Shown: positions 8,389 through 56,188 of the stretch, in pieces | Layout: every line of letters begins with the position of its first letter | Numbering within the stretch: the stretch's first letter is position 1 | Virus record (IMG/VR): IMGVR_UViG_3300031521_000009 | Reading direction: 5' to 3' (one strand) | Length of the DNA stretch: 64,000 bases | DNA from: a virus | The notes under the pieces: generated by a model | Database searches by the model: none | The model's input: only the letters and a program-made list of their open reading frames with translations | Told to the model about the DNA's origin: nothing | Position numbers and translations under genes: made by a program

Positions 8389-9825
8389 TTAATATTTTAC
8401 TGGACGATAAAGTTCAGCAATACCGTTTACGTCAAGTAAAGCTGCACCAGTTTCCCATAGGATGTGGTGGTGTTTACCATCCACTGAGTTGGCCATGTCG
8501 CCACCTTTGTTGATACCATTTACTTCACCTTCTAACCAACCGCGTTTTCCAAGTTGCAATAACTCAATTGCTGGTTGATTGATTTCAACATCTCCCAATG
8601 ATACAAAGATTGCATTATGAGAACTGTTACGGGTTCCATCAGCACCATAAGTGGTTGCACGTTGAGGATTATCAAACCATGGCACTACAGTAGGAATCAT
8701 TTTGACACCACCAAATTCATAGTATTCATAATCCAAGTTGATACCTTTCTTACCATTACCACCCATCTCAACTGTTTTAGGGTCGATACCGGCTTGTTCA
8801 CGCATAAGCTTAGCAAATCCTTTGTAGAACTGCATACCACAGATTACGGCTACCTCAGTTCCCCATGAAGAAGAATAGATAGAAATGTTTTCCATGATAT
8901 TATCAATGACACGTGTTGAAATAACATTGTAAGGTAATCTCCAAGCACCATCGCCTTGATTCAAGATACCATCACCGGCCATTACTTCAAATCCTTCATT
9001 TGTTTTCAACAGAACTTTATCATCTGCAGTAACAGTTGATTTTCCGTTCAACAATTGTTTTTCACGATACATAGCGGCACGTTCAAGCATTTGAATCTGT
9101 GCATGGTCAGCCCACATAGAAACGCCATTATGTTCCATCCAAATAGCACTAGGACGATATTCATCAGCAGTACCAGACATAGACCATTTCAAACGTTGAA
9201 TAGTCATGTGAGTATATGCCTTTTCGTCAAAGGTATATTTTTCGTAAGCTGTTTCTGACATTTCTTCGAATGAAGTATGTGAGATACTAACTTCTTGTCC
9301 AATAGCAAGCAAATTCGGATTTACATAATCACCCGATACATTGGTCATGATTTTTACACGGTAATGGAAAATTCCGGCATCAACTTCTTGTGGAAGAGTC
9401 GAGTCGGAAACGTGTACATAAGTTTGGTTATCGGCAAGTTCAAGAACATCTTTTGGAGAGAACCAATTGGTATCAAGATACAAGTCAATCCACGTTTGGT
9501 TACGACCAGGTTCATTAGGGAATGCATCACATTTGAATGCAGCAATAACGCGAGCTTTACGATCCGGATAACCTTTGACATTCCACATTACTTTGCGGTT
9601 ACCAACGATTTTATACTTTCCTGATTTTGGATTCAAAGGATCAGCAAGTTTTCCCGAGAACATATTACGACCGGCAAGTAATGAACTAAATGCAGTTACA
9701 TTTTTACGGAAAAGGGTAGTTACTTGTGCAAGCATATGTGGTGCTGCAATCAAGTATTGTGACATGTGTTTTGATGTCGGAGTTTGATTAGCGAACTCTT
9801 GTGGTGCGCCAGGTAAAATTCTCAT
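8389..9825 (-). CDS. Major capsid protein (HK97-fold, crAss type)
   Basis: 478 aa; WFSPKDVLEL, MAGDGILNQ and MANSVDG...HILWETG motifs; position in the portal-scaffold-MCP block. Confidence 0.9.
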   Translation of the reverse strand: MRILPGAPQEFANQTPTSKHMSQYLIAAPHMLAQVTTLFRKNVTAFSSLLAGRNMFSGKLADPLNPKSGKYKIVGNRKVMWNVKGYPDRKARVIAAFKCDAFPNEPGRNQTWIDLYLDTNWFSPKDVLELADNQTYVHVSDSTLPQEVDAGIFHYRVKIMTNVSGDYVNPNLLAIGQEVSISHTSFEEMSETAYEKYTFDEKAYTHMTIQRLKWSMSGTADEYRPSAIWMEHNGVSMWADHAQIQMLERAAMYREKQLLNGKSTVTADDKVLLKTNEGFEVMAGDGILNQGDGAWRLPYNVISTRVIDNIMENISIYSSSWGTEVAVICGMQFYKGFAKLMREQAGIDPKTVEMGGNGKKGINLDYEYYEFGGVKMIPTVVPWFDNPQRATTYGADGTRNSSHNAIFVSLGDVEINQPAIELLQLGKRGWLEGEVNGINKGGDMANSVDGKHHHILWETGAALLDVNGIAELYRPVKY

Positions 9826-29743: not shown

Positions 29744-29813
29744 GGGAGTGTAGCTCAAAGGTAGAGCACAACATTTTATGTTGAGGGTGATGGTTCGAGT
29801 CCATTTGGTCCCA
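29744..29813 (+). tRNA. Degenerate tRNA (pseudo-tRNA; anticodon ambiguous, UUU or UUA)
   Basis: D-arm GCTC-AAAGGTA-GAGC and T-arm GATGG-TTCGAGT-CCATT are intact; anticodon stem CAACA/TGTTG encloses only 5 nt (TTTTA); acceptor stem has a G-G mismatch. Confidence 0.65.
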
Positions 29814-29838
29814 CTAATATCAATAAACAATTATTACA

Positions 29839-31262: not shown

Positions 31263-31263
31263 G

Positions 31264-31449
31264 ATGGAAGAAATAACATTGCATTTACCTCTTAGTAAGG
31301 TAATAGAACTTGTTAGACAAGAGGAAAGAATGATGATTAAGAAATTTTTAGCTACAAATTTAAATCAACAAACTGCTGATTACATTGATCAGTATGTTCC
31401 TGTTGAATCAGAAGTATTGGCTATGTTTACATGTCCGGGCATCGGATGA
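31264..31449 (+). CDS. Hypothetical protein
   Basis: 61 aa; last gene before the terminator. Confidence 0.5.
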   Translation: MEEITLHLPLSKVIELVRQEERMMIKKFLATNLNQQTADYIDQYVPVESEVLAMFTCPGIG

Positions 31450-31466
31450 ATTTTGTAGTAGTATAT

Positions 31467-31503
31467 AAAAAGAGTTATGATTAATTTTGTAACTCTTTTT
31501 TTT
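31467..31503 (+). terminator. Intrinsic terminator
   Basis: AAAAAGAGTTA...TAACTCTTTTT followed by a T-run. Confidence 0.75.
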
Positions 31504-31526
31504 GTTTAATATTTAAATTAAATCAA

Positions 31527-31835
31527 ATGGAAAATGGTAAAGAACCTAGTGCAGATTTAGGTGTAAAAAAAGTACCTGCTAATGAAGCTATTGATGGTGG
31601 TGGACAACCTTTAGCAACTGCTAAATCAGTGTTGAATTATCCACGTAATGAAGAGCTTGTTATTCAATGTGTGATTAATAGTGAAGCCGAAGGATATGCT
31701 CTTTTAAGGGCATTACAAATCGTTGTGAATACCTTTGGTGCTACTACATGTACTCAGCTTGTTACTAAGCTTGAGAATAGTCCTAAGCTTGCTGATACTG
31801 TAAGAAAGTATATTCCTATTGTACTAGAAATGTAA
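31527..31835 (+). CDS. Hypothetical protein
   Basis: 102 aa ORF with A-rich leader. Confidence 0.6.
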   Translation: MENGKEPSADLGVKKVPANEAIDGGGQPLATAKSVLNYPRNEELVIQCVINSEAEGYALLRALQIVVNTFGATTCTQLVTKLENSPKLADTVRKYIPIVLEM

Positions 31836-31844
31836 TAATGGTAT

Positions 31845-31953
31845 GATCTAATGGCGGAATTGGTTATACGCATAGTAATTTAAAGAAAAGTCATACGAAC
31901 TACGGTGTCAGGCTTATACACTATAATTCTCTGTTCGAATCAGAGTTAGATCA
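31845..31953 (+). tRNA. tRNA-like RNA with a ~43-nt expanded anticodon loop
   Basis: Perfect acceptor GATCTAA/TTAGATC, Leu-like D-arm GCG-GAATTGGTTATA-CGC, perfect T-arm CTCTG-TTCGAAT-CAGAG; ATAGT/ACTAT stem encloses 43 nt. Confidence 0.65.
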
Positions 31954-31977
31954 CAAATTAATAATCAAATAATAATC

Positions 31978-32259
31978 ATGACTGAAACAACTTATGTACC
32001 TTTTAGTGATTTACAATCACAACCTGAGCAGTTATCAACAATAACTACTATTGAACCTTATAGTCCGGCTAATGCACAAGCGACTACTCAATGTAATCCT
32101 GTTCTTACTCATTGTTATGTATGTGGCAAAGGATGGGGTTATGGCTACTGGAAACATTGTGGATGCAATACAGTGCCAGTTGGTGATGGAACGTTGCTCT
32201 TTGCTATGTTTCTGACAGTTTATGCGCTATTCAAATACTTTAAAAGAAGAAAGATATGA
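31978..32259 (+). CDS. Cys-rich small protein with PID/PEP-CTERM-like sorting signal
   Basis: C-terminus VPVGDG-TM-KYFKRRKI. Confidence 0.6.
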   Translation: MTETTYVPFSDLQSQPEQLSTITTIEPYSPANAQATTQCNPVLTHCYVCGKGWGYGYWKHCGCNTVPVGDGTLLFAMFLTVYALFKYFKRRKI

Positions 32260-32409
32260 AACTAAAGCGTAAAAAGACATTCGTGTTCTTATTTTTATTG
32301 ATGGTATTGATAGGACTTATGTTCTTTTCTAGTGCTATCATTGAGATATTTGATATTGAATTAAGTAAACCTGCTCGAGTTTATTATGAACCCGACGAAA
32401 ACAAATAAA

Positions 32410-32991
32410 ATGAAAAAACTATTACTTCTATTGTGCTTATTACCCATAATGGCTATAGCGCAAAACTTTCTTTCCTTTGGTGGTGCTATTGTAGCTCCCA
32501 AAACAGATACCGGTAATGAAACTGGTGCCAGTCTATCCGCTTCGTTTAATCATATTATTGGACCAATAGTAATACAACCAGTAATGGCTATTACTATGAT
32601 GTCCGGGATAGATAATGAACGACGTAGAGAACGCCAATACTCATATAATGTAGAGATGGCTTCAATAGGTATTAATCTACTTAGTACTGGTAAGTTCTAT
32701 GGTGTTCTTGGCTTACATTATAATGCTAATACATTAAGCAATCAGTTTAAATTAGTTCCTAATCAATTTGATCGTACCTCACGTAATAATCTATTCTTTT
32801 CTGAATATGTTGGCATTGGTTATCGTACTTCTGTCAATATTGAATTTGGTCTTATGTATGCCAATACAAACTATATGGAAGGATATTGGCCTATAACCTC
32901 AAAGCATAACGATATGTACTTGCAATTTAAAGTATCGTATGATATTCCTCTTCATAGTAAATGTAATTGCGAACGTAAAAATTATTATTAA
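32410..32991 (+). CDS. Outer-membrane beta-barrel protein
   Basis: Signal peptide MKKLLLLLCLLPIMAIAQ; alternating strands (YVGIGYR, YLQFKVSYDIPL). Confidence 0.65.
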   Translation: MKKLLLLLCLLPIMAIAQNFLSFGGAIVAPKTDTGNETGASLSASFNHIIGPIVIQPVMAITMMSGIDNERRRERQYSYNVEMASIGINLLSTGKFYGVLGLHYNANTLSNQFKLVPNQFDRTSRNNLFFSEYVGIGYRTSVNIEFGLMYANTNYMEGYWPITSKHNDMYLQFKVSYDIPLHSKCNCERKNYY

Positions 32992-33001
32992 ATATAGCAT
33001 A

Positions 33002-33274
33002 ATGGAAAATACATTTTTTGTAATAACTAGAGGTATTAATGAATATGATCAAGATGGTGAATATTTTCATGCTGTATTTATTACAAAACCAACTAGAGAA
33101 GAACTGAGGTTATTATTTTATGGTAAAAAACATGCTCGTATTATTGGACCATCTAATGAAGAAAAATTCATTACTCATTTATTAAATGGTGGTGGTAGAC
33201 AAGAATATGAAAATGAATGGTATTATCTAACTGAAATAAAATCAGGTGAATTATATAAACATTATAGTAAATAA
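33002..33274 (+). CDS. Conserved phage hypothetical protein
   Basis: NEYDQDGEYF...GGGRQEYENEWYYL. Confidence 0.6.
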   Translation: MENTFFVITRGINEYDQDGEYFHAVFITKPTREELRLLFYGKKHARIIGPSNEEKFITHLLNGGGRQEYENEWYYLTEIKSGELYKHYSK

Positions 33275-33298
33275 AATTATTACTAAAACTCAAATAAA

Positions 33299-33628
33299 AT
33301 GAAAAAAGAAAAAGTATGTGTAGGTGATACTATCGTAGTTGATGTGTGTCAACCGAAGTTCGGCCGCTTTCCGATAGGTCGCCATCAAGGTATGATATGT
33401 AAGCTTACCTATCCGGATGGTCTGAAAAGATTAGAATACGGATGTGTGATAACAGCAACAGTACTTGTCATTAAAGATAAGTCGTTATCTGTTCTTGTGG
33501 AAGAAGTGACTAAGAGTGCTGCTGCAGCTAATGCTGAATTAAGCGTTTCAATTAGTTCCCTTGCTACTTTATGGGGTAAACAAAACAATCATACCAAGAA
33601 AGATAAATCTATCATTAGAACGCTTTAA
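33299..33628 (+). CDS. Hypothetical OB/TRAM-like protein
   Basis: Beta-rich 109 aa ORF. Confidence 0.5.
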   Translation: MKKEKVCVGDTIVVDVCQPKFGRFPIGRHQGMICKLTYPDGLKRLEYGCVITATVLVIKDKSLSVLVEEVTKSAAAANAELSVSISSLATLWGKQNNHTKKDKSIIRTL

Positions 33629-33638
33629 AATCGATATT

Positions 33639-34607
33639 ATGGACTTAGAAAAAAACATAGAAATAGCTGCAGAAGTATATTCTACTAATGGTTTTGGTAA
33701 ACCTGATGATTCTATGTCAGATCAAGATGGAATGTTTTTTGATTATTCAAAAGATTCATTTATTGATGGTGCTAAATCACAAGCTGCAAAAGATTATTGG
33801 TATAATGAGTTTAAAGCTGAAAAAACGCAAGAACCAAAACCAATGCATAATTTAATGGAAATGTTTAAAACTGCAGAAGGAATACTTATAGTAAAACCAC
33901 CAAAACATATAGATTTTGATAAACTTGTTGAATTGATAAAAGGTATCAGTAAGAAACCTACATTTGTTCAAGAAGATGAATCTGGTCTTGGTTTACATGG
34001 TATGCCTTTTAAAGTTGAGTTTCCAAAAGACTATCCTTGGAATGAACCGGTTATTATGACTGGTTGGAAAGAATACAAAGAGTATATGCGCGATTGTCCT
34101 GATCCATCTTTTACTTTTGAAGATTGGAAAAATATGATGACTAAATACAATCAAGTAACACGTAAAATTACTGATGAAATATCAGAAAGTGTTTTTGGTG
34201 TAGCTGGACATCCTATTGAAATTGTTCTTTCTGAAAAATGGTATCAACCAAATATATTTGATAAAACAGATTTATATGATGTTGAAGGAAAATCGAAAGG
34301 AATTATTATTGGTGTAGGACCAGGCAAATCATGTATGCAAGAATCTCATATACTAAGAGAATATGCTAAAAATGGTGGAGTTATCATTGGTGTTGCTAAT
34401 ATACCTAATATTGGAAAAGGATTAAGAATGGATCCAATTACTTTCAAAGAAATGTCTATTGGTATTACTGAACAAATAAAAGAAGTTCCTATATTTGATT
34501 ATACTGCTATAAGTAGAGATTATTTAGCAAATACTATTATAGAAGATAAGCCATGGGATACTAAAAAGCAAAAGCGTAACAATTACAAAAAGAAAAGAAG
34601 AAAGTAG
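33639..34607 (+). CDS. Hypothetical protein
   Basis: About 322 aa; basic C-terminal tail. Confidence 0.6.
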   Translation: MDLEKNIEIAAEVYSTNGFGKPDDSMSDQDGMFFDYSKDSFIDGAKSQAAKDYWYNEFKAEKTQEPKPMHNLMEMFKTAEGILIVKPPKHIDFDKLVELIKGISKKPTFVQEDESGLGLHGMPFKVEFPKDYPWNEPVIMTGWKEYKEYMRDCPDPSFTFEDWKNMMTKYNQVTRKITDEISESVFGVAGHPIEIVLSEKWYQPNIFDKTDLYDVEGKSKGIIIGVGPGKSCMQESHILREYAKNGGVIIGVANIPNIGKGLRMDPITFKEMSIGITEQIKEVPIFDYTAISRDYLANTIIEDKPWDTKKQKRNNYKKKRRK

Positions 34608-34848
34608 TTTTATTCAAATAATTTTATACATTTGCAGTCATGATACAATCAATAATTCATCCCATCACCAGCCAGACGTTTGCATTATGCAGCGACACAC
34701 AACAACACGTGATTACGGTTATTATTAGATTTGTTTCGGATATCAATCAAACTTTAAAGAAAGCCTATTGCAAAGCAACACTTGAACTATCTAGTTCGTA
34801 TGGTTAGATGCAAACAGGTGTCAGTAAAATAATAGATTGATATAAATT

Positions 34849-34883
34849 AAACGTCCAGGTACTTTATTGTATCTGGACGTTTT
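34849..34883 (+). terminator. Intrinsic terminator ending a promoter-driven ~240-nt leader/sRNA
   Basis: 14-bp stem AAACGTCCAGGTAC/GTATCTGGACGTTT; TACATTTG promoter at 34627-34634. Confidence 0.75.
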
Positions 34884-34907
34884 CGTTTCAAATTAAAAAC
34901 TAATAAA

Positions 34908-35183
34908 ATGCATACAGTAAAAATGTTGTTCGTAAAAGAACCGGTTGCTATTGTACCAACTGTTGAGTTACGTAGATACTCTTACGATACACAAGAAGAA
35001 CTTAAAGTTGGTGAAGTATATTCTTCTCCATCTTATCCAAAGAACTTCTTACAAGTAGATTCTATTGAGCCAAAAGACGAAAGTGTAGTATTACCATACA
35101 AGATCAAAGAACTTGTTATTGGTGAACCGTCGGCGATTGCAGTAAGTAACACAAACTTAGTATATCTCAAAAAAGTAAATTAA
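34908..35183 (+). CDS. Hypothetical protein
   Basis: 91 aa; RRYSYDTQEELKVG motif. Confidence 0.6.
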   Translation: MHTVKMLFVKEPVAIVPTVELRRYSYDTQEELKVGEVYSSPSYPKNFLQVDSIEPKDESVVLPYKIKELVIGEPSAIAVSNTNLVYLKKVN

Positions 35184-35184
35184 G

Positions 35185-35586
35185 ATGAAAAATCTCATTT
35201 ATAGCATATTGTCGATAATGCTGTTTGTCGGCATGTTCTTAGGTCTTGAATATGATTTCCGGACAAACAACAATCATGTTCTTGGACTATTCTCACCTAT
35301 TCAATGGATGGCAGTACTATTCCTATTTTGGATAACTATTGTACTTCTGAATATATGCCTTGCTTATGCACTTAAACGTGTACATATAGCTTCAAGCCTA
35401 TTATTCTATATTGAATCCGATGATGAATGTCAGTTATACGTTATACCTTTCATGCAAGTCATTGTGCTTTTAAATAATTTCTTTTGTTGGCTTGCTATTA
35501 TTAATGGTCGTATTAATGACGAGGAAAGAATGCAGAAAGAATTTGATGAAGAATTTCAAAAGAATACTATTGGTTCAAAGAATTAG
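35185..35586 (+). CDS. Membrane protein
   Basis: Three hydrophobic segments. Confidence 0.6.
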   Translation: MKNLIYSILSIMLFVGMFLGLEYDFRTNNNHVLGLFSPIQWMAVLFLFWITIVLLNICLAYALKRVHIASSLLFYIESDDECQLYVIPFMQVIVLLNNFFCWLAIINGRINDEERMQKEFDEEFQKNTIGSKN

Positions 35587-35884
35587 CTCTCTCTTTAATA
35601 GCTTTTGTTATTATCATATTACGCCTTATACAACGTTCAAGAAACACTTTGTAGATTATTTTTCTTTCAATTGGAGCTATTCGTATGCACCGGTTGAATT
35701 TGTGTGTCTTGTACACTGATAACGTAAGAAAACCTCCACGTTTAATGATATGGGAAATTACTTGACCATAATAGTTTAGTAGTCTTTCTATATCGTTACG
35801 CGTGACAGATTTAAAATTTACTGGATCCTGTTCTTTTACTTTGGCCAGGACTCTTTTACTTATCTCTTTATTTGTAAATAGCAT
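35567..35884 (-). CDS. HU/IHF-like protein, antisense to the early module
   Basis: TNKEISKRV...VTRNDIERLLNYYGQVISHIIKRGGFLTL; own TATCTTTG promoter at 35946-35953. Confidence 0.55.
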   Translation of the reverse strand: MLFTNKEISKRVLAKVKEQDPVNFKSVTRNDIERLLNYYGQVISHIIKRGGFLTLSVYKTHKFNRCIRIAPIERKIIYKVFLERCIRRNMIITKAIKERANSLNQ

Positions 35885-35977
35885 AATGTTGTTTATATCA
35901 ATTTCTACTATTGTAGATTAAATAGCATATCATAATGATTTGCGACAAAGATAACACTTTCATAAAACATAACGTAA

Positions 35978-36343
35978 ATGAAAACAAAATTAGTAAAACC
36001 GAATTTAAGCTCTTTTGAGCTAGCTAAATTGAATTTCTATGCTGACTACTTAGGTTACATATTTAAGTTCAACAGAGAGAAGAACAGTGCCCTTTTCGAA
36101 ACAATAGAAAAGGAAATTGCATACATACAAATGGATGAATACAATCATCTCTTTCTTGTGTGGAAAAATGACGAACGTATAGAATTTATTGATGAAAAGA
36201 TAAATATCTGTATCAAGCTCCATAAGATTAATATCCTTCCTGAGATATTCTCAACTATTTCATTAATCATTGGTATGCACGTCATGTGTGGTGAAACAGT
36301 TTCTAAACAAAAATATAAAAAGCTATGTCTACACACTTTGTAA
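35978..36343 (+). CDS. Hypothetical protein
   Basis: ORF track. Confidence 0.55.
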   Translation: MKTKLVKPNLSSFELAKLNFYADYLGYIFKFNREKNSALFETIEKEIAYIQMDEYNHLFLVWKNDERIEFIDEKINICIKLHKINILPEIFSTISLIIGMHVMCGETVSKQKYKKLCLHTL

Positions 36344-36660
36344 TTACAACTTATGATGAGTTCTTAGAAAAGCTTTATGTCTTATGTCCTATTGGTAATG
36401 CTGAGGTAATATACCAAGTTATGCTTACCATATTGAATAAACCACTTCCTACTAAAGAACTACTGACATTTGAATTACTATGCAAGCGATTCAAAGATTA
36501 TCAGAACTTCATTAAGCCGTTCAATGCCGGTGAGAAACAGTTTATCAAAAAAGACAAAGAAGAGAAAGAACTTGGAGCGTATATTCAATTGGAAATGTAC
36601 AAGAACGATTATAGCAAACAACACAATGATCCTAATGACTTTTATTTATTTGGAGTATGA
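36325..36660 (+). CDS. Hypothetical protein
   Basis: ORF track; translationally coupled to neighbours. Confidence 0.55.
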   Translation: MSTHFVITTYDEFLEKLYVLCPIGNAEVIYQVMLTILNKPLPTKELLTFELLCKRFKDYQNFIKPFNAGEKQFIKKDKEEKELGAYIQLEMYKNDYSKQHNDPNDFYLFGV

Positions 36661-36899
36661 AAGAAAATGAAAATAAAGATGTAATTACTCTTAATCCAGT
36701 AACTGCATTTAAGACCACAGATGGTCAGTTGTACGAAAATGATATTGATGCATTAGAACATCAAAAAGAATTGAATTTCGAGTCTGATATCATTGAATTT
36801 TCAGAAAATTATATTCCTTATGAATCTGACAAAAGTGATTTTGTTAGATATGTAATGGAAAATAAAGATTTATTGAAAGAAATATTTGATAGATTATGA
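36657..36899 (+). CDS. Hypothetical protein
   Basis: AFKTTDGQLYE..DALEHQ motif common in phage small proteins. Confidence 0.6.
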   Translation: MKENENKDVITLNPVTAFKTTDGQLYENDIDALEHQKELNFESDIIEFSENYIPYESDKSDFVRYVMENKDLLKEIFDRL

Positions 36900-38293
36900 A
36901 AAAAGATAAAGCTGTTGATTTATTCAACCAACCTAAAGTAGTAAAACCGAAGAAAGAAAAGAAACCAAAGAAGTCAGCCGACCGGGACCCTAATGTTACT
37001 CTCAATGAAGAACAAGAAGAAGCCATTCAGCTATTACGTGCTTTTTTGAAATCTGATACTGACTTTGATTTTACTATTGAAGGTAAAGGAGGAACCGGCA
37101 AATCCTTTCTGATTCAAGAGTTATTCAAACGTAAAAAACAGAACTATGATGAATGGTATGTACCAAATACTGTAATTGGTGTATGCGTTACTCACATGGC
37201 ACGTATCAATCTTATGAAGTCAATACCGAATACTACTACCTATGCTTCTGCAGCTAATCTTACAGTAATGTATGATCCTAATGGGACATTGTATTTTGTA
37301 GAGAAGTATGGTGGTAGTCAGTTCTCAGAACTTATGGGATATAAATACATCGTAGTAGATGAATGCTCTATGTTCTCAAAAGGTATGATTGCTATGCTTC
37401 GTAAGTGTTGCTCTAAAACAGCTAAGATTATATGGCTTGGTGATTCTAATCAGTTGCCACCAATTGAAGCTGATGGAGATAATGATAGTCCTACTTTTGA
37501 TTTCAAGAATAAGTATCAACTTACCATTAAAATGCGTCAAAAGAATGAAGATCATATTGCTATTCTCGGTGATAAAATTTGTGAACATATTGCCGGTGAC
37601 AAAGATATTTCTTTTCTTTCTACTATGACTCAGCAATGGGATGCAGCTAAAGGTAAAGGATATTCAATTACAACCATGGACAAGGCCATAGAAAGCTATG
37701 TAAAGAACTTTCAGGCTGGAATGGATATTCGTATCACTGCATACAGAAACAAACGTATAATCGAACACAATAAAGTAATTCGGAATATGCTTTGGGTGGA
37801 GAACTCAAATGAAATGTATGTACCCGGCGAACTTATTGTCATGAATGAACAGTATGCACCACACATGAATATTATTGCGTACAATGGCCAATCATTCCGT
37901 ATTCAAAGTCTGCATGTAGAAATGGTAGAGTTTGTTGAATGCTTTGTCATATCAGTTCCGAAAGTTGGAAGAAAACCAAAATCAAAAGAAACAGTGCAAT
38001 TGCTTGTTCCTACTGAGAATGGTTATCCTCTTTACAAAAATCATTTGGATAAGCTGAAACGTACTGCAATAAAAACGCATGAGTGGTCCGAACACCAAGC
38101 TTTCAAAGGAAAGTTTGCCAATATCTCGTATGGCTATGCTATGAATAACTATAAGATACAAGGTAGTACCATAAAGGGATGCTATGTAGATTTAAGTGAT
38201 ATCATGAGTGTAAAGCCTATCTCAAATAAACGTAAGTTACAAGCCTTTTATGTAGGAGTATCGCGCGCTACTCACTTTTTAGCAATATTTTAA
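36896..38293 (+). CDS. SF1B Dda/RecD-like DNA helicase
   Basis: GKGGTGKS Walker A, VVDECSM, GDSNQLPPI, KIQGST and FYVGVSRA motifs. Confidence 0.9.
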   Translation: MKKDKAVDLFNQPKVVKPKKEKKPKKSADRDPNVTLNEEQEEAIQLLRAFLKSDTDFDFTIEGKGGTGKSFLIQELFKRKKQNYDEWYVPNTVIGVCVTHMARINLMKSIPNTTTYASAANLTVMYDPNGTLYFVEKYGGSQFSELMGYKYIVVDECSMFSKGMIAMLRKCCSKTAKIIWLGDSNQLPPIEADGDNDSPTFDFKNKYQLTIKMRQKNEDHIAILGDKICEHIAGDKDISFLSTMTQQWDAAKGKGYSITTMDKAIESYVKNFQAGMDIRITAYRNKRIIEHNKVIRNMLWVENSNEMYVPGELIVMNEQYAPHMNIIAYNGQSFRIQSLHVEMVEFVECFVISVPKVGRKPKSKETVQLLVPTENGYPLYKNHLDKLKRTAIKTHEWSEHQAFKGKFANISYGYAMNNYKIQGSTIKGCYVDLSDIMSVKPISNKRKLQAFYVGVSRATHFLAIF

Positions 38294-38294
38294 T

Positions 38295-38654
38295 ATGATA
38301 CTAACAACAATTGAGCAAAATAAATATGATATTCTGGTAGATATTCAAAAGAACTTTCCAGCACTTACTTTTCAACATGTCGGTTATGATTATATTGATA
38401 AAAGTAAACTCACTGAAGCAGATAAACAAGCCTGGAAAGAAGTTGAAACTTTATTGCGTAAAGCTATCAAAGGATTTGATTGTTTCAAAAACTTCTGTCA
38501 TACTAAAAAAGGAATATTACAAATCCGATTTGATTATGGTTGGGGCTGGGAACTTGAAAATGGTATTGCTGTACATAGAGGAATATCATTTACCGGTGTT
38601 GGTTATTTAGAGTTACAAGAGTTACTTAATGGATTTAATGAAAACAAAGTATGA
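38295..38654 (+). CDS. Hypothetical protein
   Basis: ORF track; IRFDYGW...SFTGVGY. Confidence 0.6.
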   Translation: MILTTIEQNKYDILVDIQKNFPALTFQHVGYDYIDKSKLTEADKQAWKEVETLLRKAIKGFDCFKNFCHTKKGILQIRFDYGWGWELENGIAVHRGISFTGVGYLELQELLNGFNENKV

Positions 38655-39414
38655 TTATAGCGATATATGATTTTAAAATAAAAGGGTTTCCTGAAATAAT
38701 TGAAGAAGTAATCTGTAGAAAAAGAACACCAATTCATTTTTCTGAAAAAAGGTTTCCTATGTCAGATATTACTCTTGAATTTATTTACGTAGGGTTTTAA
38801 TTAATAATATCATGGCAGAATATAGTGATAAAATGTATTACGAAGATCAACTGAAAAAACTCAAAGACACAAAGACTATAAATGTCTGTTTTGTTGATTA
38901 TCGTGGTGAACGTACCAGTTGGATAATGCTGAATAATGACAGCATAGAAGTATTAATCGAGTTCTTAGAATCTCAAAAAACAAAAACATAAATGATTAAA
39001 ATTGGACTAAAAGCAAATGCTCAATGGTCTTTTGAAGCAATGAATGGCAATACGCTTGGTGGTGAAACTGATACTTCTAAAAATTTTCGAAGTATTATGC
39101 ATCTTAGCCCAGAACAGTTCTTTGATTATAAAGAGCTTCTTGACAAACATGGATGTGATAATATAAAATCACTAACCGAGCTTACAGAGAATCAAAAAAT
39201 TGAGTATAAATGTGACTATATATGTTACATAATTAATAAGTAAAATGAAAAGAACAATAGTTATCATAACCATTGAACACCATACAGAAGGTGAGTTTCA
39301 AACAAAGTTTTCTAATGCTGCAGATTTAATATCTCAAGGGTTTAAAAATGCTGAATATTCCAATGATGAAGATGAAGTAACAATGGAGTTTAAACGATCA
39401 TAAACAGAAGCATA

Positions 39415-42788: not shown

Positions 42789-43679
42789 ATGAAAACTTTC
42801 GATTTCAAATCAAACAATGTTCAAGAAATGGAACTTGATGTTCTAAAACAAACTTACCATGAAAAAAACTTCGATGGTAAACCCTCTTTCAATGGTATCT
42901 ATCACTATGAGCTTATTGAACGTATTGGTGCTATAATAGCAAAAAACAATATGGATTTCAATATTGAATCAATCTTTGCCGCTAACAATAAAAAGGCCGG
43001 TCGTGATGGTGTATCAGTATCAAAAGAATTAGAAGCTCAGTATGGAGATAATTCTATTCAAGCGCATGTTCTTCGTCGCGTATTTACTACGATCCGAATT
43101 AATGATTTGGAAGATGATGAAACGAACACCGGTCTTGTCGTTGCATTCCACCAAGATGGCATTCAAATAGCTATTGGTCCTAACGTAAAGATTTGTCATA
43201 ACCAATGTATTTTGGCAGCCGACAGAATGATTTCTACCTATGGTGGAGATGGTAAGATTAAAGACCTGGATAAAGTATTTCAAATCATTGATGATTGGAT
43301 GCAGAACTTCACTGAGCAACGTTCACATGACCAAAAGATAATATCACGTATGAAAGCTATTGAAGTTACGTACAATAATACTATGGCGCTTATTGGCCGG
43401 TTGAATACCATACGTGTTGTAAAGGATTCTTCTGAAAAGTCATTGAAGAAACTTGAAGCAAATGTGGGTAGAAACTACCCTCTCAATCAAACACAGATTT
43501 CTACATTTGTTGAGAACTATCTATTGGAATGTATCAAGCGTGATTCTACCAATATGAGTTTGTGGGATATCTACAATATCTCTACTGAATTGTATAAGCC
43601 AGGTCAAACTGACTTTAGCAATATAATTGGGCAAAACATCGCCTGGAGTGAGTTTTTATCAAAAGAATACAATTTGTAG
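42789..43679 (+). CDS. DUF932-like protein
   Basis: GPNVKICHNQCI and SLWDIYNISTE motifs typical of DUF932/TIGR03299-like proteins. Confidence 0.65.
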   Translation: MKTFDFKSNNVQEMELDVLKQTYHEKNFDGKPSFNGIYHYELIERIGAIIAKNNMDFNIESIFAANNKKAGRDGVSVSKELEAQYGDNSIQAHVLRRVFTTIRINDLEDDETNTGLVVAFHQDGIQIAIGPNVKICHNQCILAADRMISTYGGDGKIKDLDKVFQIIDDWMQNFTEQRSHDQKIISRMKAIEVTYNNTMALIGRLNTIRVVKDSSEKSLKKLEANVGRNYPLNQTQISTFVENYLLECIKRDSTNMSLWDIYNISTELYKPGQTDFSNIIGQNIAWSEFLSKEYNL

Positions 43680-43680
43680 C

Positions 43681-44286
43681 ATGAAAGACGTAAATATTGA
43701 AAATGCTTTTATAGTATTGAAAGGTGATCATATGTCAAATGACATTGAGCTTGGTACTATTTTTCTTGAATGCAAATGTGATCGATACAAATTGAATGTT
43801 CTTTCTTATGAACGTAAATTCAAAGATGGAAATACTATTTTTGAATTAGATGTTGAAAATCCAAATGATTTTGTAGCTGATGTATTTAGAAACAATGAAG
43901 TATCAGTTAGTTATTGGACTAAGAATGCAACCGGCCCATTTATTATCGGTATGATGCCAGTTATTTTATTTGATGGAACTATTCATTATCTTCCATTCAA
44001 TCAATTTGCAGAAGAGAAGCTATATATGGCTCCCGGCAATCATTTATGGATGGCATTGACAATAGTAAAATACAAAAGCTGTACTGCTACTTTTGGTGAA
44101 GGACCTGGTTGGGCGACTATCTACAGTATCGATAGCTATCAAGAAGGACAAGGACATGCTCAGGAGCTACTTATTCAAGCAAAAGCATATTACTCCTTAC
44201 TTGAGAAAGAAATGGCTTCTACAGTAGCTTTAAACTCTACTATGGAACATATCTTGGAAAAACTTTCTATTAAAGAGTACAAATAA
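43681..44286 (+). CDS. Hypothetical protein with C-terminal GNAT-like domain
   Basis: IYSIDSYQEGQGHAQELL resembles GNAT acetyl-CoA motif A. Confidence 0.5.
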   Translation: MKDVNIENAFIVLKGDHMSNDIELGTIFLECKCDRYKLNVLSYERKFKDGNTIFELDVENPNDFVADVFRNNEVSVSYWTKNATGPFIIGMMPVILFDGTIHYLPFNQFAEEKLYMAPGNHLWMALTIVKYKSCTATFGEGPGWATIYSIDSYQEGQGHAQELLIQAKAYYSLLEKEMASTVALNSTMEHILEKLSIKEYK

Positions 44287-44297
44287 TTAGCGAATTG

Positions 44298-44804
44298 TTT
44301 GGTAAACTTATAGAATTGTCTTTTCTTTGTATCGTTATTAATGGTAGATACAAGGACATATAAAAGAAATTAAGGCTATTCTCGGCTATGCTGAAAGCCT
44401 TTGAAACCTCTGACATCGTATCTACCAGGATTTGTCAGGGGTTTCTCTTTTATAGTCTATCGGTGTATAATGTACGTTTGGCTATAATCGTAAATCTTCT
44501 AAAAGGAAATGGTGTGCGATAAGAAGAATGGAGCCAGATTAATCCATGTACCAGTGATACAACACTGAAAGTAATCAAAGTAGAGCATTTGTATTATTAC
44601 TCTGCCCTGAAAGCGAACGACCGACTGCCGGACTGCCTACGCTTAGAAAGGATAACCCTTTCACAACATTTTAATATGGTTGTGGGTAAGGGGTACTTAT
44701 ATCCTTTCTTCTCACTCCCTCCTTTAAAACTGTCTAATTATATACTTATTTAATATATAATATATCTATAAGTATAAGTTTATAATAATATATAATAGTA
44801 TACG
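44298..44804 (+). other. Structured noncoding element (promoter, attenuator-like terminator, multi-stem RNA, AT-rich tract); candidate replication origin
   Basis: TTTG-N20-TTTCTTTG promoter; hairpin 44403-44445; nested stems 44460-44568; hairpin 44645-44709; AT-rich tract 44736-44802. Confidence 0.5.
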
Positions 44805-45470
44805 TTGAAAACTTTTTATTTCTTTACTGATGGTGCATCAGAACCTACAAATCCAGGGCCTTCCGCTAGTGCTTTTTGTGAACTCTCCGATTATCACGAT
44901 AACCGTGAATTATATTCTGAATCTATTTTTCTTGGATATGCTACAAATAATATTGCTGAATTAAAAGCAATAGATATTTTATTTGATTATATCATTCTCA
45001 ATTCTAATAAATATCTTTCTTTAGAAAATATCATTTATGTTTATGCTGACAGTCAATATGCACTTGATTGTATTCGTAAATGGTATCCTGAATGGGTAAG
45101 AAAGAATAAATTGAAAGATAAAAAGAATTTAGAACTAATTAAAAGCATATACATAAAATATATTCAGATAACTGCATTATCAAACATAAAACTTGATTGG
45201 GTAAAAGCTCATAATGGTCATTGGGGTAATGAAAGAGCTGATGAGTTATGCGTAAAACAGTGTTTAGACAATGCAGGAAAGATTATTGTATCTAAAACTA
45301 TGCAATCACCTACTGAACAATTTAATGCTCTTATACGTGAATCAAATATGCTTAATCAATCTATCAATAATAATATAAAGACATTAAAATCTTTGTATGA
45401 AGAAATTGTTGGTGTAAATATAGATGAATACTTAATTCTATCAATGATAAAAGAAAAGAATATATTATGA
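44805..45470 (+). CDS. rnhA: Ribonuclease HI
   Basis: FTDGAS, TNNIAELKA, DSQY and WVKAHNGHWGNERADEL catalytic motifs. Confidence 0.93.
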   Translation: MKTFYFFTDGASEPTNPGPSASAFCELSDYHDNRELYSESIFLGYATNNIAELKAIDILFDYIILNSNKYLSLENIIYVYADSQYALDCIRKWYPEWVRKNKLKDKKNLELIKSIYIKYIQITALSNIKLDWVKAHNGHWGNERADELCVKQCLDNAGKIIVSKTMQSPTEQFNALIRESNMLNQSINNNIKTLKSLYEEIVGVNIDEYLILSMIKEKNIL

Positions 45471-47110
45471 ATGAAATTTCTAAAATTTATTTATCAAAAA
45501 TTATTGCTTCCAATTTAAATCCTAGGAAAGTAATAGATCAAAACTCTATAATTGAGTTAGCACAAAGTATTAAATCAGTAGGATTATTGCAACCTATTAC
45601 TGTACGACTTCTTACAGAAGATAATCATTATGAAATTATAATGGGATATCGTCGATTTTGTGCATGTAAATATCTTGAAATGGAAACAATGCCATGTATC
45701 ATTGTAGAAATGAATGATGAAGAAGCACTGGATGCAATGATCATTGAGAACTTACAACGCCAGAATATCGAACCTATGGATGAAGCGCGGGCATTTGCTG
45801 ACCTAAATAACAAAGGTTGGACATTTGCTGATATTGCTGTAAAAGTTGGTAAGCCGGTTCAATTTGTAATGCATAGAATACGTTTACTTGAGCTTATTGC
45901 TGAGTTTGTAAAAATGTTTGATGAAAATGAATTATCTATTTCTCATGCTTATGAATTATGTAAGCTTGACAAAGATGTTCAGTTAGATATTTTCAAAACT
46001 CGTTACAGTGAAACAGCTGGTGATTACTATCGGTGGAATGACCTTAATCTAAAAGATTTGAAATCGAAAATACAAAATCTTGCAAAGAACTTAGACAATG
46101 CTTCTTTTAGCTTAGCTGAGTGTATTACTTGTCAGTTTTGTACTTCTAGTCATGGTTCTTTATTCCCGGACTACAAAATCAATTCTTGTACTAATGGCTT
46201 CTGTTATGATGAAAAAAGCTTTGAACATGGTATGAACAATATCATTCTTGCACATGAAGAAGATACTACTATTATGATTCGTTCATTAGGTACAAGTAAT
46301 CGAGTTCTTGATAAGCTGAAAGAATTGAATATACCAGTTGTAGTGTTCAGTACCGATGAATACGATTTTGAGCATGATAATAGCGATGATCTATCCTTTC
46401 ATGATAAAATGGTCAAGAAAGGATTTGAACTCGTGTATGGGCTTGATATATGGTCTGGTGGTGATAAGATATTCTATGTAAAAGCAAAGATTACCAAAAA
46501 AGATATCGCTGCTGCAGGAACAGTTCATCCGGAACTTGTAAAGCTTGACAAAGACCTTGTTCGTAAAGAGGAAATCAAAGAGGAAAAGATTAATGCTGAT
46601 CTTAGAAGTCTTATTTCCAGTAGTGATTATCGTGAGATAAGTACACCACTTCTTCCTATCGAAGAAACTGCTTTTATGGCTGTAGTATTCTATATGGCTT
46701 CCAATAGTAAATTAAAAGAGATAAGAGCAAAATTCAAGAAAGATTTGTCTTACATGGAAAACATACAAAACATGTTGCCCGAGGATATTATTACATTGAA
46801 ACGGTGCTTTATAAAACAATGTATTGTTGGAACAGAAGTAACTCATGATGCCGATGTTCAGAATATCCTTTCATCTATTTCGAATGTATTCTATTCAGAT
46901 AAGTTTGGGGAGATTGTCAAAGAACATACGGCCACATGTAACAAACGTAAAGATCGTATTGCTATTCGTAAACAAGTTATTCTTGATGAAATTAATCCGG
47001 TAAAGAAAGAAGTTGTTGAGAAAGAAAAGAAAGTACCTACAAAAGAAAAAGAAGTGCCGGTTGTAGTAGAAGAAAATGAATATGTCAAATTTGGTAACAT
47101 AGGAGAATAA
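45467..47110 (+). CDS. parB: ParB/Spo0J-family protein with long C-terminal extension
   Basis: NPRK...ELAQSIKSVGLLQPITVR...GYRRF...IIENLQR, followed by an HTH. Confidence 0.88.
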   Translation: MNEISKIYLSKIIASNLNPRKVIDQNSIIELAQSIKSVGLLQPITVRLLTEDNHYEIIMGYRRFCACKYLEMETMPCIIVEMNDEEALDAMIIENLQRQNIEPMDEARAFADLNNKGWTFADIAVKVGKPVQFVMHRIRLLELIAEFVKMFDENELSISHAYELCKLDKDVQLDIFKTRYSETAGDYYRWNDLNLKDLKSKIQNLAKNLDNASFSLAECITCQFCTSSHGSLFPDYKINSCTNGFCYDEKSFEHGMNNIILAHEEDTTIMIRSLGTSNRVLDKLKELNIPVVVFSTDEYDFEHDNSDDLSFHDKMVKKGFELVYGLDIWSGGDKIFYVKAKITKKDIAAAGTVHPELVKLDKDLVRKEEIKEEKINADLRSLISSSDYREISTPLLPIEETAFMAVVFYMASNSKLKEIRAKFKKDLSYMENIQNMLPEDIITLKRCFIKQCIVGTEVTHDADVQNILSSISNVFYSDKFGEIVKEHTATCNKRKDRIAIRKQVILDEINPVKKEVVEKEKKVPTKEKEVPVVVEENEYVKFGNIGE

Positions 47111-47841
47111 TGTCAAAACAAAGAATTTTATCAGAATGTACAGTAGTACAAAATCGCGTATATCTACCGGAAGAACAAATCGACCGTAAGCTTTATATGG
47201 AAGTTGCAAAAGCTTTAGAACTTATCGGTGGTAAATGGACTGGTGGTAAAGTAAAGGCTTTTGTATTTGCTGAGGATCCAACAGATTTATTGGCAGAGAT
47301 AGCCAGTGGTGAAAAACGGAACCTAAAGAAAGAACATCAATTCTTTGGTACTCCACCGGAACTTGCTGACAGACTTGTAGAGCTTGCTCAATTAAACAAC
47401 TATGACCGTGTTCTAGAGCCTAGTGCCGGACAAGGTGCTATCGTTGAAGCAATGCAACGCAAATGGCATAATATCGTGCCTACATGTGTTGAGAATATGG
47501 GACTCAATTCTATTATTCTTACAAAGAAACAGATTACTCATTTCTTTCAAGACTTTCTTACTTCAGAATGTAATAGACCATTTGATAAGGTAATCGCTAA
47601 TCCACCATTCACAAAGAATCAGGATATTGATCATATCTATAAAATGGTTGAAGTCTGTAAGCCCGGTGGAATAGTAGTATCATGTGTTTCTAATCATTGG
47701 AGAGAATCAAATAATAAGAAAGAAACTGAGTTCAGAGCTTTTCTTGATGGTATGGGTGCTGTTATTGAAGAAATACCAGCTGGTACCTTTAAAGAAAGTG
47801 GAACTATGATTGCAGCATGTATCGCAATCATTCATGTATGA
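47110..47841 (+). CDS. SAM-dependent (N6-adenine-type) DNA methyltransferase
   Basis: QFFGTP, VLEPSAGQGA, IANPPF and GTFKESGT motifs. Confidence 0.85.
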   Translation: MSKQRILSECTVVQNRVYLPEEQIDRKLYMEVAKALELIGGKWTGGKVKAFVFAEDPTDLLAEIASGEKRNLKKEHQFFGTPPELADRLVELAQLNNYDRVLEPSAGQGAIVEAMQRKWHNIVPTCVENMGLNSIILTKKQITHFFQDFLTSECNRPFDKVIANPPFTKNQDIDHIYKMVEVCKPGGIVVSCVSNHWRESNNKKETEFRAFLDGMGAVIEEIPAGTFKESGTMIAACIAIIHV

Positions 47842-52586: not shown

Positions 52587-53300
52587 ATGGCCGGATGGAC
52601 TAAAGCAGATCGAAAAGCATTTCTTGAAAGATGTGATTCAAGAAAGAATATAATGCCCCAAGAAGTAATATCAACACAAGGTAGCCTTTTTGATGATGTC
52701 ATTGAAACAGACAGTGTAAATCCCAGATATCAGAAATTACGATTAGTATTACTTTATCCAGAACTTGATACAAATGAAAAAGGTAATCCTATTCCTAAGC
52801 AGTCAGCACGTTTTATGGTTACTCGCTATAGTAATGGTCCAAAGAAAGGAGAGATTCTTATGTACACAAATAAGCATACTGGAAAGCCTGATGTACTTAT
52901 CAAATCATATCAAGATGCTCGTATCACTAATACAGTAAAAGCATTGCAATTACAAGTCCTGAAACAACTTGGTGAAATATCATTTACAAAATTCCGTGGT
53001 GCTATATTCGTTACCCGTCTTGAATTTATATTTAAAGTATCTGATTCGGCACCTAAGTATATGAAAGATGATCTTACCGCCGGCACTAAGATTTACTTTA
53101 AAGATACGGCTCCCGATTTAGATAACCTTGAAAAGATGATATGGGATGCTATGCAAGCTGAAAAGGCTGAGAAAGATGTAAAGAATGCCCTTGTAGGTCT
53201 TGTGTATGATAATGATGCACAGATAGTATCTAAGAATGGTATTTTTAAACGTTGGGGTTTACGCCCGGGTGTAATAATTGAATTAGAAGGACCTATTTAA
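52587..53300 (+). CDS. rusA: RusA-family Holliday junction resolvase
   Basis: PIPKQSARF, PDLDNLEKMIWDAM and YDNDAQIV. Confidence 0.85.
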   Translation: MAGWTKADRKAFLERCDSRKNIMPQEVISTQGSLFDDVIETDSVNPRYQKLRLVLLYPELDTNEKGNPIPKQSARFMVTRYSNGPKKGEILMYTNKHTGKPDVLIKSYQDARITNTVKALQLQVLKQLGEISFTKFRGAIFVTRLEFIFKVSDSAPKYMKDDLTAGTKIYFKDTAPDLDNLEKMIWDAMQAEKAEKDVKNALVGLVYDNDAQIVSKNGIFKRWGLRPGVIIELEGPI

Positions 53301-54533: not shown

Positions 54534-54941
54534 ATGGCTAAAGGATCAAATGCTTTTAAAGAAACGATATTGAATTATGTATGTGCTCTTGCTGATAAAG
54601 ATGAACTCTTTGCAGCAAAGTACGCTAATTCAAAAAAGAACATTGATGATTGTGTTACCTACATTCTCAATTATGTACAAACAAGTGGTGAAACTGGATT
54701 TACTGATGCTGAGATATTCGGACAAGCAGTACACTACTATGAAGAAGAAAATATCAATGTTGGAAAACCAGTCAATACTCGTGTAGTAATCAATCATAAA
54801 GTTGAACTTACACCGGAAGAACTTGAAAAAGCTAAAGCAGCTGCAAAAGAAAGAGTATATACTGAAACAGCTAGTTCTATGAAAAAATCTGTAAGAAAAA
54901 TAGCTACACCAGTTATTCAACAACCTACTTTATTTGATTAA
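54534..54941 (+). CDS. PcfK-like protein
   Basis: FKETI...DELFA..Y....KNIDDCVTYILNYVQ.SG..GFTDAEIFGQAVHYYEE. Confidence 0.85.
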   Translation: MAKGSNAFKETILNYVCALADKDELFAAKYANSKKNIDDCVTYILNYVQTSGETGFTDAEIFGQAVHYYEEENINVGKPVNTRVVINHKVELTPEELEKAKAAAKERVYTETASSMKKSVRKIATPVIQQPTLFD

Positions 54942-56188
54942 TGAAACCACGTACCAAACTTCAACTTCGGATAGTAAATGATATATCCAGCAAGTTGAAA
55001 CCTATTACTAAGAAACAAATTAATTGGGCCATAAAGACCGGATTTCCTTGTGAGGGTTATCGTACTAAAACAAAAGGGACAACATGTATGGAATGCGCTA
55101 CTGTGTTCCATACAGACAAAGAGAAGTGTACTTGCCCGGAATGTGGTAAGAAATTGAATATCGTTGATACTAAAAAGAAGTTAGCACAAAATCAAGTAAC
55201 TATTTCCATAATAGAAACAGTTGAAGAGTTTCAGATAATGCGTTATTTCTCTTTTATTCGATATTATAGTAAAGGTGATAAAGTAAAATATGCACATATT
55301 GAAGGATGCCGAAATTTTCTTGATGATAACAATAAGCTTACAACAATGTCCAGACTTATATATGCCGGTTATGGTTATTCTATTGATGGATATATGTGGA
55401 GTTCTGCATTAGAACTAAGAAACTTTGTTTTTAATCATCATGATATTTATGCTGATTATGTTTATCTAAATCCTACTATTCGACCAATATATAAACAACG
55501 AGGACTTGATTCTGATTTCTTTGATATACGTCCATTGTTTATGTTTCGTTCTTTACTTACTAATAATAAGATTGAGACATTACTAAAGACCGGTCAAACA
55601 AGTTTAATTGAGTTTCAGTGTTACAAGAATGATATTGATTTTAAATTATTATGGCCAACTATCCGTATTTGTATGCGTAATAACTACATTATCAAAGATG
55701 CAAATATGTGGATGGATTATATCAATTTCTTGATGAAGTTCAAGAAAGACATTCTCAATCCAAAGTATGTTTGCCCTGTTGATTTAAAGTTAGAACATGA
55801 TATTTACATGAATAGAAACTTCATGATTGTAAATGGACCTGGATTAAAGATATTGGCAAAGAAATCAGTTGTTTATTCCGACTTACTTATCACTGATGGT
55901 AAAATAGAAGTTGTTCCTTTAAAGACATTAGAGGAATACAAAGAGGAAGGAATTGGATTGAAGCATTGTGTGTTCAAGAGCAGTTATTATGATAGACCCA
56001 AATCACTTATTCTAAGCGCGCGTATTGACTCCAAACGTATTGAGACAGTAGAAGTATCACTTGAAACATTTAAAGTCGTACAGTGCCATGGTTGGAACAA
56101 TCAAAACAGTAAGTATCATGACAAGATTGTTCAATTGGTAAATGAGAATGGAAATGTCATTCGAAAACTAACAAAAAAGGCTATATGA
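54941..56188 (+). CDS. PcfJ-domain protein
   Basis: MKPRTKLQ start, CMEC/CPECG Zn finger, EEGIGLKHCV...RIETVEV...VVQCHG. Confidence 0.85.
   Translation: MKPRTKLQLRIVNDISSKLKPITKKQINWAIKTGFPCEGYRTKTKGTTCMECATVFHTDKEKCTCPECGKKLNIVDTKKKLAQNQVTISIIETVEEFQIMRYFSFIRYYSKGDKVKYAHIEGCRNFLDDNNKLTTMSRLIYAGYGYSIDGYMWSSALELRNFVFNHHDIYADYVYLNPTIRPIYKQRGLDSDFFDIRPLFMFRSLLTNNKIETLLKTGQTSLIEFQCYKNDIDFKLLWPTIRICMRNNYIIKDANMWMDYINFLMKFKKDILNPKYVCPVDLKLEHDIYMNRNFMIVNGPGLKILAKKSVVYSDLLITDGKIEVVPLKTLEEYKEEGIGLKHCVFKSSYYDRPKSLILSARIDSKRIETVEVSLETFKVVQCHGWNNQNSKYHDKIVQLVNENGNVIRKLTKKAI

Follow-up and report, generated by a model that had tools for sequence, protein, structure and literature searches.

Large RNAs that combine several pseudoknots with conserved unpaired bases are, to our knowledge, rare, and most multi-pseudoknotted large RNAs of known function are ribozymes, ribonucleoprotein scaffolds or sensors. 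The GOLLD, ROOL, OLE and raiA RNAs are several hundred nucleotides long, carry covarying helices, pseudoknots and conserved unpaired bases, and are phage-borne. Transcripts also serve DNA replication directly. The primer of ColE1 is produced through trimming by RNase H, and the T4 and T7 origins composed of a promoter plus an unwinding element likewise use transcripts. Origin-initiator pairs of lambdoid phages are exchanged as modules. A further arrangement is found in the autoregulatory leader of T4 gene 32, in which a 5′ pseudoknot is followed by an unstructured A/U-rich tract that reaches the start codon. For the crAss-like phages, replication and RNA biology are, as far as we know, almost unstudied. 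The Cellulophaga crAss-like phage phi14:2 makes abundant long non-coding RNAs, located in its g004-g006 gaps (10.1101/2020.03.07.982082), and the origins of the prototypic crAssphage have been predicted at the strand switch (10.1101/2024.03.20.585998).

The locus described here lies in a 64,000-nt stretch of an AT-rich phage genome (about 33% G+C), referred to as the window, whose phage is of the crAss-like kind. The minus strand of the window encodes the portal, large terminase and major head protein, and a plus-strand block encodes a Dda-like helicase, a DnaB-like helicase, RNase HI, a ParB-like protein, a methyltransferase, RusA and PcfJ. In this replication module, after DnaB, a gap of 518 nt separates an ORF at 43627-44286 from the RNase HI gene at 44805-45470. 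Comparison of related phages indicates that the gap encodes a conserved, non-coding folded RNA of ~390 nt (~44336-44722) with three pseudoknots, most likely a previously uncatalogued family of crAss-like phages. The fuller interpretation that we favor, and that we hold to have an even chance of being correct, is that the gap is the gene for a new multi-pseudoknotted RNA that forms one cassette with RNase HI, extending from the promoter to the stop codon.

The RNA shares its size, covarying helices, pseudoknots, conserved unpaired bases and phage-borne nature with GOLLD, ROOL, OLE and raiA, but it has no sequence or structure match to them, is tied to RNase HI rather than to tRNA clusters, and is known from five lineages. 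It resembles ColE1 RNA II in that its promoter lies several hundred bases upstream, in that it folds over several hundred nucleotides, and in that an RNase H is functionally near; the promoter and defined transcript fold of ColE1 are paralleled here by a conserved motif and a covarying fold. Unlike ColE1, the locus has no RNA I promoter that we could see, no G-rich RNA facing a C-rich template, and no skew signal. The T4 gene 32 leader is similar in that an extended A/U-rich tract without structure leads from a pseudoknotted RNA to the start of a gene for a replication protein; the RNA described here is, however, about five times larger, has three pseudoknots, and precedes RNase HI rather than a single-strand binding protein. 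The non-coding RNAs of phi14:2 differ in genome position, and a covariance model of the RNA core (see below) found no match in bases 1-9000 of that phage.

Relatives were gathered by profile and pattern scans of viral, metagenome and genome contigs. A blastn search of the RNA region against 50,697 phage records gave no matches, and tblastn of RNase HI against the same 50,697 records recovered only relatives at ~33% identity or less. The RNase HI protein search delineated a small subfamily with 48-74% identity. Besides the window, four further lineages were obtained (five in total): L006; L001, with the identical copies L002, L007, L013 and L015; L003, with L010 identical and L008 and L009 near-identical; and L011, with L012 and L014 identical. 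DNA-pattern scans of viral and genome contigs added L011 as the sole lineage; matches from looser DNA patterns were due to chance and were rejected by the core covariance model. The resulting alignment represents the five lineages in seven rows, three of which are near-identical. The RNA is present in all five lineages obtained from this RNase HI subfamily, and in every lineage a gap of at least 500 nt precedes the RNase HI gene, whose start codon is TTG in five of five. The features of the locus, all on the plus strand, are as follows.

44298-44329, plus strand: Bacteroidetes-type promoter-like motif, with a -33 TTTG at 44298-301, a 20-nt spacer and a -7 box, TTTCTTTG, at 44322-29.
44342-44351, plus strand: 5′ strand of pseudoknot helix PK1, pairing with 44418-44427; the helix covaries in five lineages.
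44359-44367, plus strand: A-rich 5′ strand of helix P1, pairing with 44446-44454 and closing a three-way junction.
44372-44401, plus strand: hairpin H1, an arm of the three-way junction, with the outer 5 bp conserved.
44403-44445, plus strand: hairpin H2, terminator-like, 12-14 bp, whose loop holds the PK1 3′ strand (44418-44427).
44446-44454, plus strand: U-rich run after H2, which is also the 3′ strand of P1; the U run is longer in L003.
44455-44494, plus strand: block with the highest conservation in the RNA, for the most part lacking a proven partner; window and L011 are 100% identical here and 57-70% identical in the neighboring parts; many columns are invariant.
44495-44527, plus strand: helix e (44495-500/44522-27), with 5/6 pairs compensatory; its loop gives the 5′ strand of helix b.
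44514-44551, plus strand: pseudoknot helix b (44514-17/44548-51), which crosses e; 100% paired, 2/4 pairs compensatory.
44528-44547, plus strand: hairpin c (44528-32/44543-47); 100% paired, 2/5 pairs compensatory; its loop gives the 5′ strand of helix d.
44537-44576, plus strand: pseudoknot helix d (44537-41/44572-76); 100% paired, 2/5 pairs compensatory.
44552-44567, plus strand: hairpin a (44552-56/44563-67); 100% paired, 3/5 pairs compensatory.
44580-44605, plus strand: hairpin i (44580-85/44600-05); 3/7 pairs compensatory.
44611-44644, plus strand: helix k (44611-15/44640-44) with a small inner hairpin; the same architecture appears in per-lineage folds.
44645-44709, plus strand: long 3′ hairpin j, with a perfect outer stem of 10 bp and a G-rich inner arm.
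44711-44722, plus strand: single-stranded C/U-rich tail, conserved in 4/5 lineages.
44723-44804, plus strand: AT-rich spacer, poorly conserved in sequence.
44805-45470, plus strand: RNase HI gene (PF00075, E 6e-20), with a TTG start and a C-terminal helical tail.

Across the gap, the alignment shows strongly conserved blocks with indel-rich stretches between them. These blocks are conserved at least as well as the catalytic domain of RNase HI: the central 160 nt, here called the core, are 70-83% identical to the window, compared with 64-83% for the DNA of the catalytic domain. On both strands, the predicted folding of the region is better than that of shuffled sequence (z = -3.8 and -4.3). G-U pairs in the core and the 5′ junction occur in the plus-strand orientation only, which identifies the plus strand as the folding strand. 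A protein-coding reading of the region was rejected on the basis of absent codon periodicity and indel lengths, with mismatches that follow no codon phase and indels that are mostly not multiples of three; the longest ATG-initiated ORF in the region is 15-19 aa in two lineages.

Searches of Rfam at the gathering score returned no match for the window or its relatives. Under permissive settings, the window gave chance-level matches only (E 0.5-8, to unrelated eukaryotic and viral families), and four relatives gave none at E <= 1. No Rfam match was obtained to riboswitches, ribozymes, RNase P, tmRNA, introns or GOLLD/ROOL/OLE/HEARO, and ARAGORN placed no tmRNA at the locus, detecting only a tRNA-Lys elsewhere.

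The sequence elements that an earlier note on this DNA had named were all found at the positions it gave. Among them are the TTTG at 44298 and the TTTCTTTG box at 44322 of its proposed promoter. Both TTTG cores are invariant in all five lineages, with a start-to-start spacing of 27-28 nt, and the motif agrees with the Bacteroidetes -33/-7 consensus. The promoter assignment rests on this conservation, because a loose promoter pattern by itself shows no enrichment within the window; a TATATAAT-type motif was likewise not enriched as a recurring promoter. The transcript probably starts near 44336. The 10-codon upstream ORF that the note placed behind the promoter exists in the window, but its ATG at 44341 reads AAG, ACG or another triplet in the relatives. 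Separately, we observed a perfect 10-nt inverted repeat between the promoter spacer (44303-44312) and the AT-rich tract (44773-44782), 460 nt apart; its conservation in the relatives is not apparent.

The 5′ domain is organized around PK1. The earlier note had pointed out a 10-nt complementarity between 44342-51 and 44418-27, the latter within the loop of a 13-bp hairpin at 44403-45 that is followed by a U-rich run, and each of these elements is confirmed. The note had held that its proposal would be refuted if the 10-bp pairing showed no compensatory change in homologs; the pairing covaries in five of five lineages, and this refutation decisively fails. Both strands of PK1 are replaced by other, still complementary sequences in every lineage, always with Watson-Crick pairing and over 8-12 bp: the helix measures 10 bp in the window, 12 in L006, 9 in L011, 12 in L001, and 8 plus 7 in L003. 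Duplex energies range from -10 to -18.5 kcal/mol, and the observed PK1 length was matched by 0-5 of 5000 loop shuffles in four lineages and by 91 of 5000 in L003. PK1 begins 12 nt after the -7 box in four lineages and 4 nt after it in L003.

The minimum-energy folds of four lineages share the same three-way junction, in which P1 encloses H1 and H2. In an alignment of four lineages, the 26 junction pairs are all 100% paired, and three of them are compensatory. P1 is fully paired in four lineages and shows a change from U-A to C-G in L001. The apical part of H1 varies in sequence while a hairpin is retained in each lineage. H2 contributes 12 pairs, all 100% paired and two of them compensatory, with a folding energy of -16.6 to -22.7 kcal/mol. 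A hairpin at 44324-33/44347-56 at the 5′ end, which would mask PK1 in read-through transcripts, was considered and set aside as unconserved in the relatives.

Together, PK1 and H2 show the strand order of a classical H-type pseudoknot (44342-51, 44403-15, 44418-27, 44433-45), and both helices covary. From geometric reasoning, PK1 and H2 can coexist and stack on each other, because the PK1 helix amounts to about one turn and the PK1 strand in the H2 loop is preceded by a linker of 1-3 nt and followed by one of 5-7 nt (four lineages). H2 and its U run also have the form of an intrinsic terminator, one that looks competent, and termination might occur there. Unlike intrinsic terminators, however, the hairpin loop here doubles as a strand of the pseudoknot, and the U run as one of P1; we know of no described terminator with this combination. 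An anti-terminator pairing that competes with the H2 stem is missing in four of the five lineages, and an overlap with the inner stem is seen only in L003. With the PK1 strand confined to the loop in four of five lineages and the upstream ORF unconserved, the attenuator driven by that ORF, as the earlier note had envisaged it, is not supported.

For the core, a covariance model was built on 44446-44612 and the seven sequences were realigned to it. Pairs were counted over six helices, two of them crossing as pseudoknots, and one helix proposed by RNAalifold. Paired cells amount to 96.9%, and 17 of 40 pairs are compensatory, compared with 1-4 after displacing the partner by 1-3 columns; four of the counted helices were used in fitting the alignment, which favors them, and pseudoknot helices b and d lie outside the model. 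None of 500 shuffles of the core reached the observed values on four of five measures, including pairing, compensatory pairs and covariation; the number of further pair types is not distinctive (76/500 shuffles). Among the nested stems noted earlier, the one at 44495-500/44522-27 is retained as helix e, with compensatory changes in five of its six pairs. Those at 44460-66/44562-68 and 44476-83/44532-39 were discarded: they show no compensatory change, are 73-88% paired, and clash with the covarying helices. The RNAalifold helix (44450-57/44480-87) was also rejected, as it shows no compensatory change and is broken in L001, in which its rival P1 is compensated.

In the 3′ part, a short helix and a long hairpin are found in each of the lineages, the hairpin in variable form. 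In helix k, both sides of one pair are changed in L003. The long hairpin at 44645-44709 that the note had described is borne out in the window; a deletion makes it shorter in L001, it is enlarged in L003, and in L011 another hairpin takes its place. The C/U-rich tail has no complementary target elsewhere in the window. The AT-rich spacer that follows is 71-120 nt long, with 12-19% G+C in all five lineages versus 26-34% in other same-strand gaps, and shows no conserved sequence or repeats across the lineages. The near-pure AT composition claimed for this tract is accurate for the window (12% G+C), but the claimed TATACTTAT/ATAAGTATA symmetry is common only to the closest relative, L006. The spacer has no visible pair of promoter elements of the TTTG type, and the stretch from the RNA to the RNase HI gene contains no terminator made of a hairpin and a T run.

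The sequence marks the encoded protein as an ordinary RNase HI whose active site is intact. Residues D9, E52, D82, H136 and D146 are invariant, their catalytic assignment being made by position. The predicted fold is confident for residues 1-155, and a long helix spans residues 169-202; this C-terminal helix is an addition and is poorly conserved. At the start of the gene (window 44802-44812), a two-codon mini-ORF (ATG-NNT-TGA) overlaps the RNase HI start in three lineages, L003, L006 and L011. Such an overlap might couple termination to re-initiation.

The gene order around the locus is kept as DnaB ... o296 ... RNA-RNase HI ... o76-o492; the neighbors o296 and o492 gave no informative match in Pfam and PDB sequence searches. 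The earlier note had also remarked on a ParB gene beside RNase HI. This neighbor is found in the window, L011 and L006, but not in L001 and L003. In the window, the genes after RNase HI, at 45467-47841, encode a 547-aa ParB-like protein and an N6-type DNA methyltransferase; since this pair is missing in L001 and L003, it is an accessory insert and not part of the RNA locus.

A comparison of the window with L011, whose phage is elsewhere about 90% identical to it, delimits the unit that changes together. The flanking proteins are highly similar (DnaB 99%, o296 94%, the upstream protein 86% and ParB 88% identical), whereas RNase HI is only 50% identical in amino acids and the 5′ and 3′ domains of the RNA are 57-69% identical. 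In a sliding comparison, divergence sets in at ~44303, immediately behind the -33 box, and ends at ~45500; an island at 44449-88 within this stretch is 100% identical. Only the promoter, the RNA and RNase HI have diverged, and they were therefore replaced or diverged as one unit. In addition, the core model found no match beside 74 other phage RNase HI genes (<=35% identity; wider profile scan). Given this joint divergence and the absence of the core from the 74 other genes, the RNA and RNase HI look like one cassette. Of the earlier note's claims, those of a pseudoknot close to the promoter and of a large structured RNA associated with the RNase HI gene are supported. A single recombination event can, however, also make neighboring DNA diverge together without functional coupling.

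Several other explanations of the locus were weighed. It is possible, though on balance unlikely, that the RNA is a free-standing, trans-acting RNA of the GOLLD, ROOL, OLE or raiA type that merely lies upstream of the RNase HI gene. Its size, its several pseudoknots and its conserved unpaired bases would suit such a role, as would a conserved promoter motif of its own and a spacer of variable length before the next gene. Related phages make abundant long non-coding RNAs (10.1101/2020.03.07.982082), and ornate RNAs are described as forming RNA-only multimers (10.1101/2024.12.08.627333); in a variant of this explanation, PK1 could be intermolecular and join copies of the RNA into a multimer. However, the RNA occurs strictly with a single RNase HI subfamily, alongside which it has diverged as a cassette, it has no recognizable 3′ terminator, and the linker lengths of PK1 suit an intramolecular knot. 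We consider it improbable that the locus is an RNA-primed origin, as proposed in the earlier note, in which an R-loop formed by the transcript would invade the AT-rich tract and the phage RNase HI would trim it to a 3′-OH primer. The order of promoter, structured RNA, AT-rich tract (low in G+C in all lineages) and RNase HI speaks for it, the locus sits in the replication module after DnaB, and RNA and RNase HI exchange as one module. Yet the tract is without conserved sequence or repeats, and the highly conserved unpaired bases of the core point to a working folded RNA and not to a hybrid. There is also some weak counter-evidence. The RNA near the tract is C/U-rich and then A/U-rich, a composition that, by established thermodynamics, forms the weakest hybrids of RNA with DNA. 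When the alignments were read for an antisense promoter like that of RNA I, the minus strand showed no conserved Bacteroidetes-type promoter motif, and promoters of other types could be present. The GC-skew curve is without an inflection at 44.5 kb, and cumulative skew reaches its minimum at ~27 kb, at the strand switch, where the origins of the prototypic crAssphage are predicted; the skew argument is weak because skew here follows gene direction. The note had also reasoned from a genome with no visible primase or initiator, but such an absence is uninformative because the window covers part of the genome and lacks even a DNA polymerase.

More doubtful still is a regulated attenuator or riboswitch, in which a ligand, a protein or a second RNA would decide whether PK1 forms, and hence whether H2 terminates transcription, gating both the RNA and RNase HI. 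The hairpin and U run are kept in all lineages, and in L003 they are more terminator-like, with PK1 entering the inner stem. Against such a switch, PK1 shows no overlap with the stem in four lineages, the junction offers few bases for a ligand pocket, the 5′ domain is the least conserved part of the RNA in L003 (53%), and no riboswitch family matches. There is no conserved leader peptide either: a conserved leader ORF of the kind found in trp-type attenuators is absent, and codon periodicity is lacking. We give very little credence to the RNA being an inhibitor of the adjacent nuclease, in the manner of type III toxin-antitoxin systems (ToxIN), that would keep RNase HI inactive until needed. 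The order of promoter, RNA and nuclease gene, the pseudoknotted nature of the RNA, and the joint divergence of RNA and nuclease gene are compatible with such a system. The RNA region contains no tandem repeats, however, and the protein is an RNase HI (PF00075) with an intact active site rather than a ToxN-type endoribonuclease; we are not aware of RNase HI acting as a toxin.

If the gap is instead the gene for an RNA that forms a cassette with RNase HI, as we favor, the following sequence of events can be proposed. Host RNA polymerase would start about 6 nt after the -7 box, and the 5′ end of the transcript would pair with the hairpin loop once the loop emerges. PK1 and H2 could stack into one rod of roughly 24 bp, and the U run would pair with the upstream A run, such that the 5′ domain would be a closed, nuclease-resistant cap and not a switch controlled by the upstream ORF. 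Transcription would then continue across the core and the AT-rich spacer and enter the RNase HI gene. Co-transcription of the RNA and RNase HI, which we infer, is the simplest reading because no host-type promoter or hairpin terminator is seen between them. The folded core would be the working part, acting on or with its cognate RNase HI. In one option, it might set the amount of enzyme made from the weak UUG start behind the unstructured A/U tract; a TTG start kept in all lineages together with a long unstructured A/U tract suggests tightly set, low translation. In another option, the core might bind RNase HI through the variable C-terminal helix, although we know of no precedent for an RNase HI that binds a dedicated RNA.

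Some observations run against a single cassette. Because H2 and the U run are terminator-like, a large share of the transcripts might end at about 110 nt. The C-rich tail and the G-poor tract behind it could together form a Rho-type stop; RNase HI would then depend on a separate promoter, and none was recognized. The variation of the spacer between 71 and 120 nt also means that the fold is not positioned at the start codon, unlike most cis-regulators.

A more specific version, which we put forward tentatively and think rather unlikely, is that the RNA and RNase HI form a two-part machine, either as a ColE1-like module for an RNA-primed origin in a large dsDNA phage, swappable from phage to phage, or as the first dedicated RNA partner of RNase HI in a ribonucleoprotein. 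In both cases, the variable C-terminal helix would recognize the matching RNA. Whichever applies, the RNA offers a handle that most orphan RNAs lack, namely the gene of a single, well-understood enzyme as its constant partner. If RNA and RNase HI act together, they would represent either a novel means of initiating or controlling the replication of phage DNA or a novel kind of ribonucleoprotein built on RNase H; if they act separately, the RNA would still be a new family for the crAss-like phages.

Further observations concern the surroundings of the locus. For the upstream ORF at 43627-44286, the ATG at 43681 is the probable start, as it is in L011, and would yield 201 aa. This ORF matches nothing in Pfam or PHROG and is missing from L006 and L003. 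The tRNA-Lys gene (anticodon UUU) lies at 29744-29814, near the strand switch and the cumulative GC-skew minimum (about 26-28 kb). Within 31263-39414, several other plus-strand gaps between ORFs, 235-760 nt in length (31836-32385, 34608-35184, 35587-35977 and 38655-39414), might hold further RNAs. Finally, 52587-53300 encodes a RusA-type Holliday junction resolvase that carries a long N-terminal extension, and 54941-56188 encodes a PcfJ-like protein.
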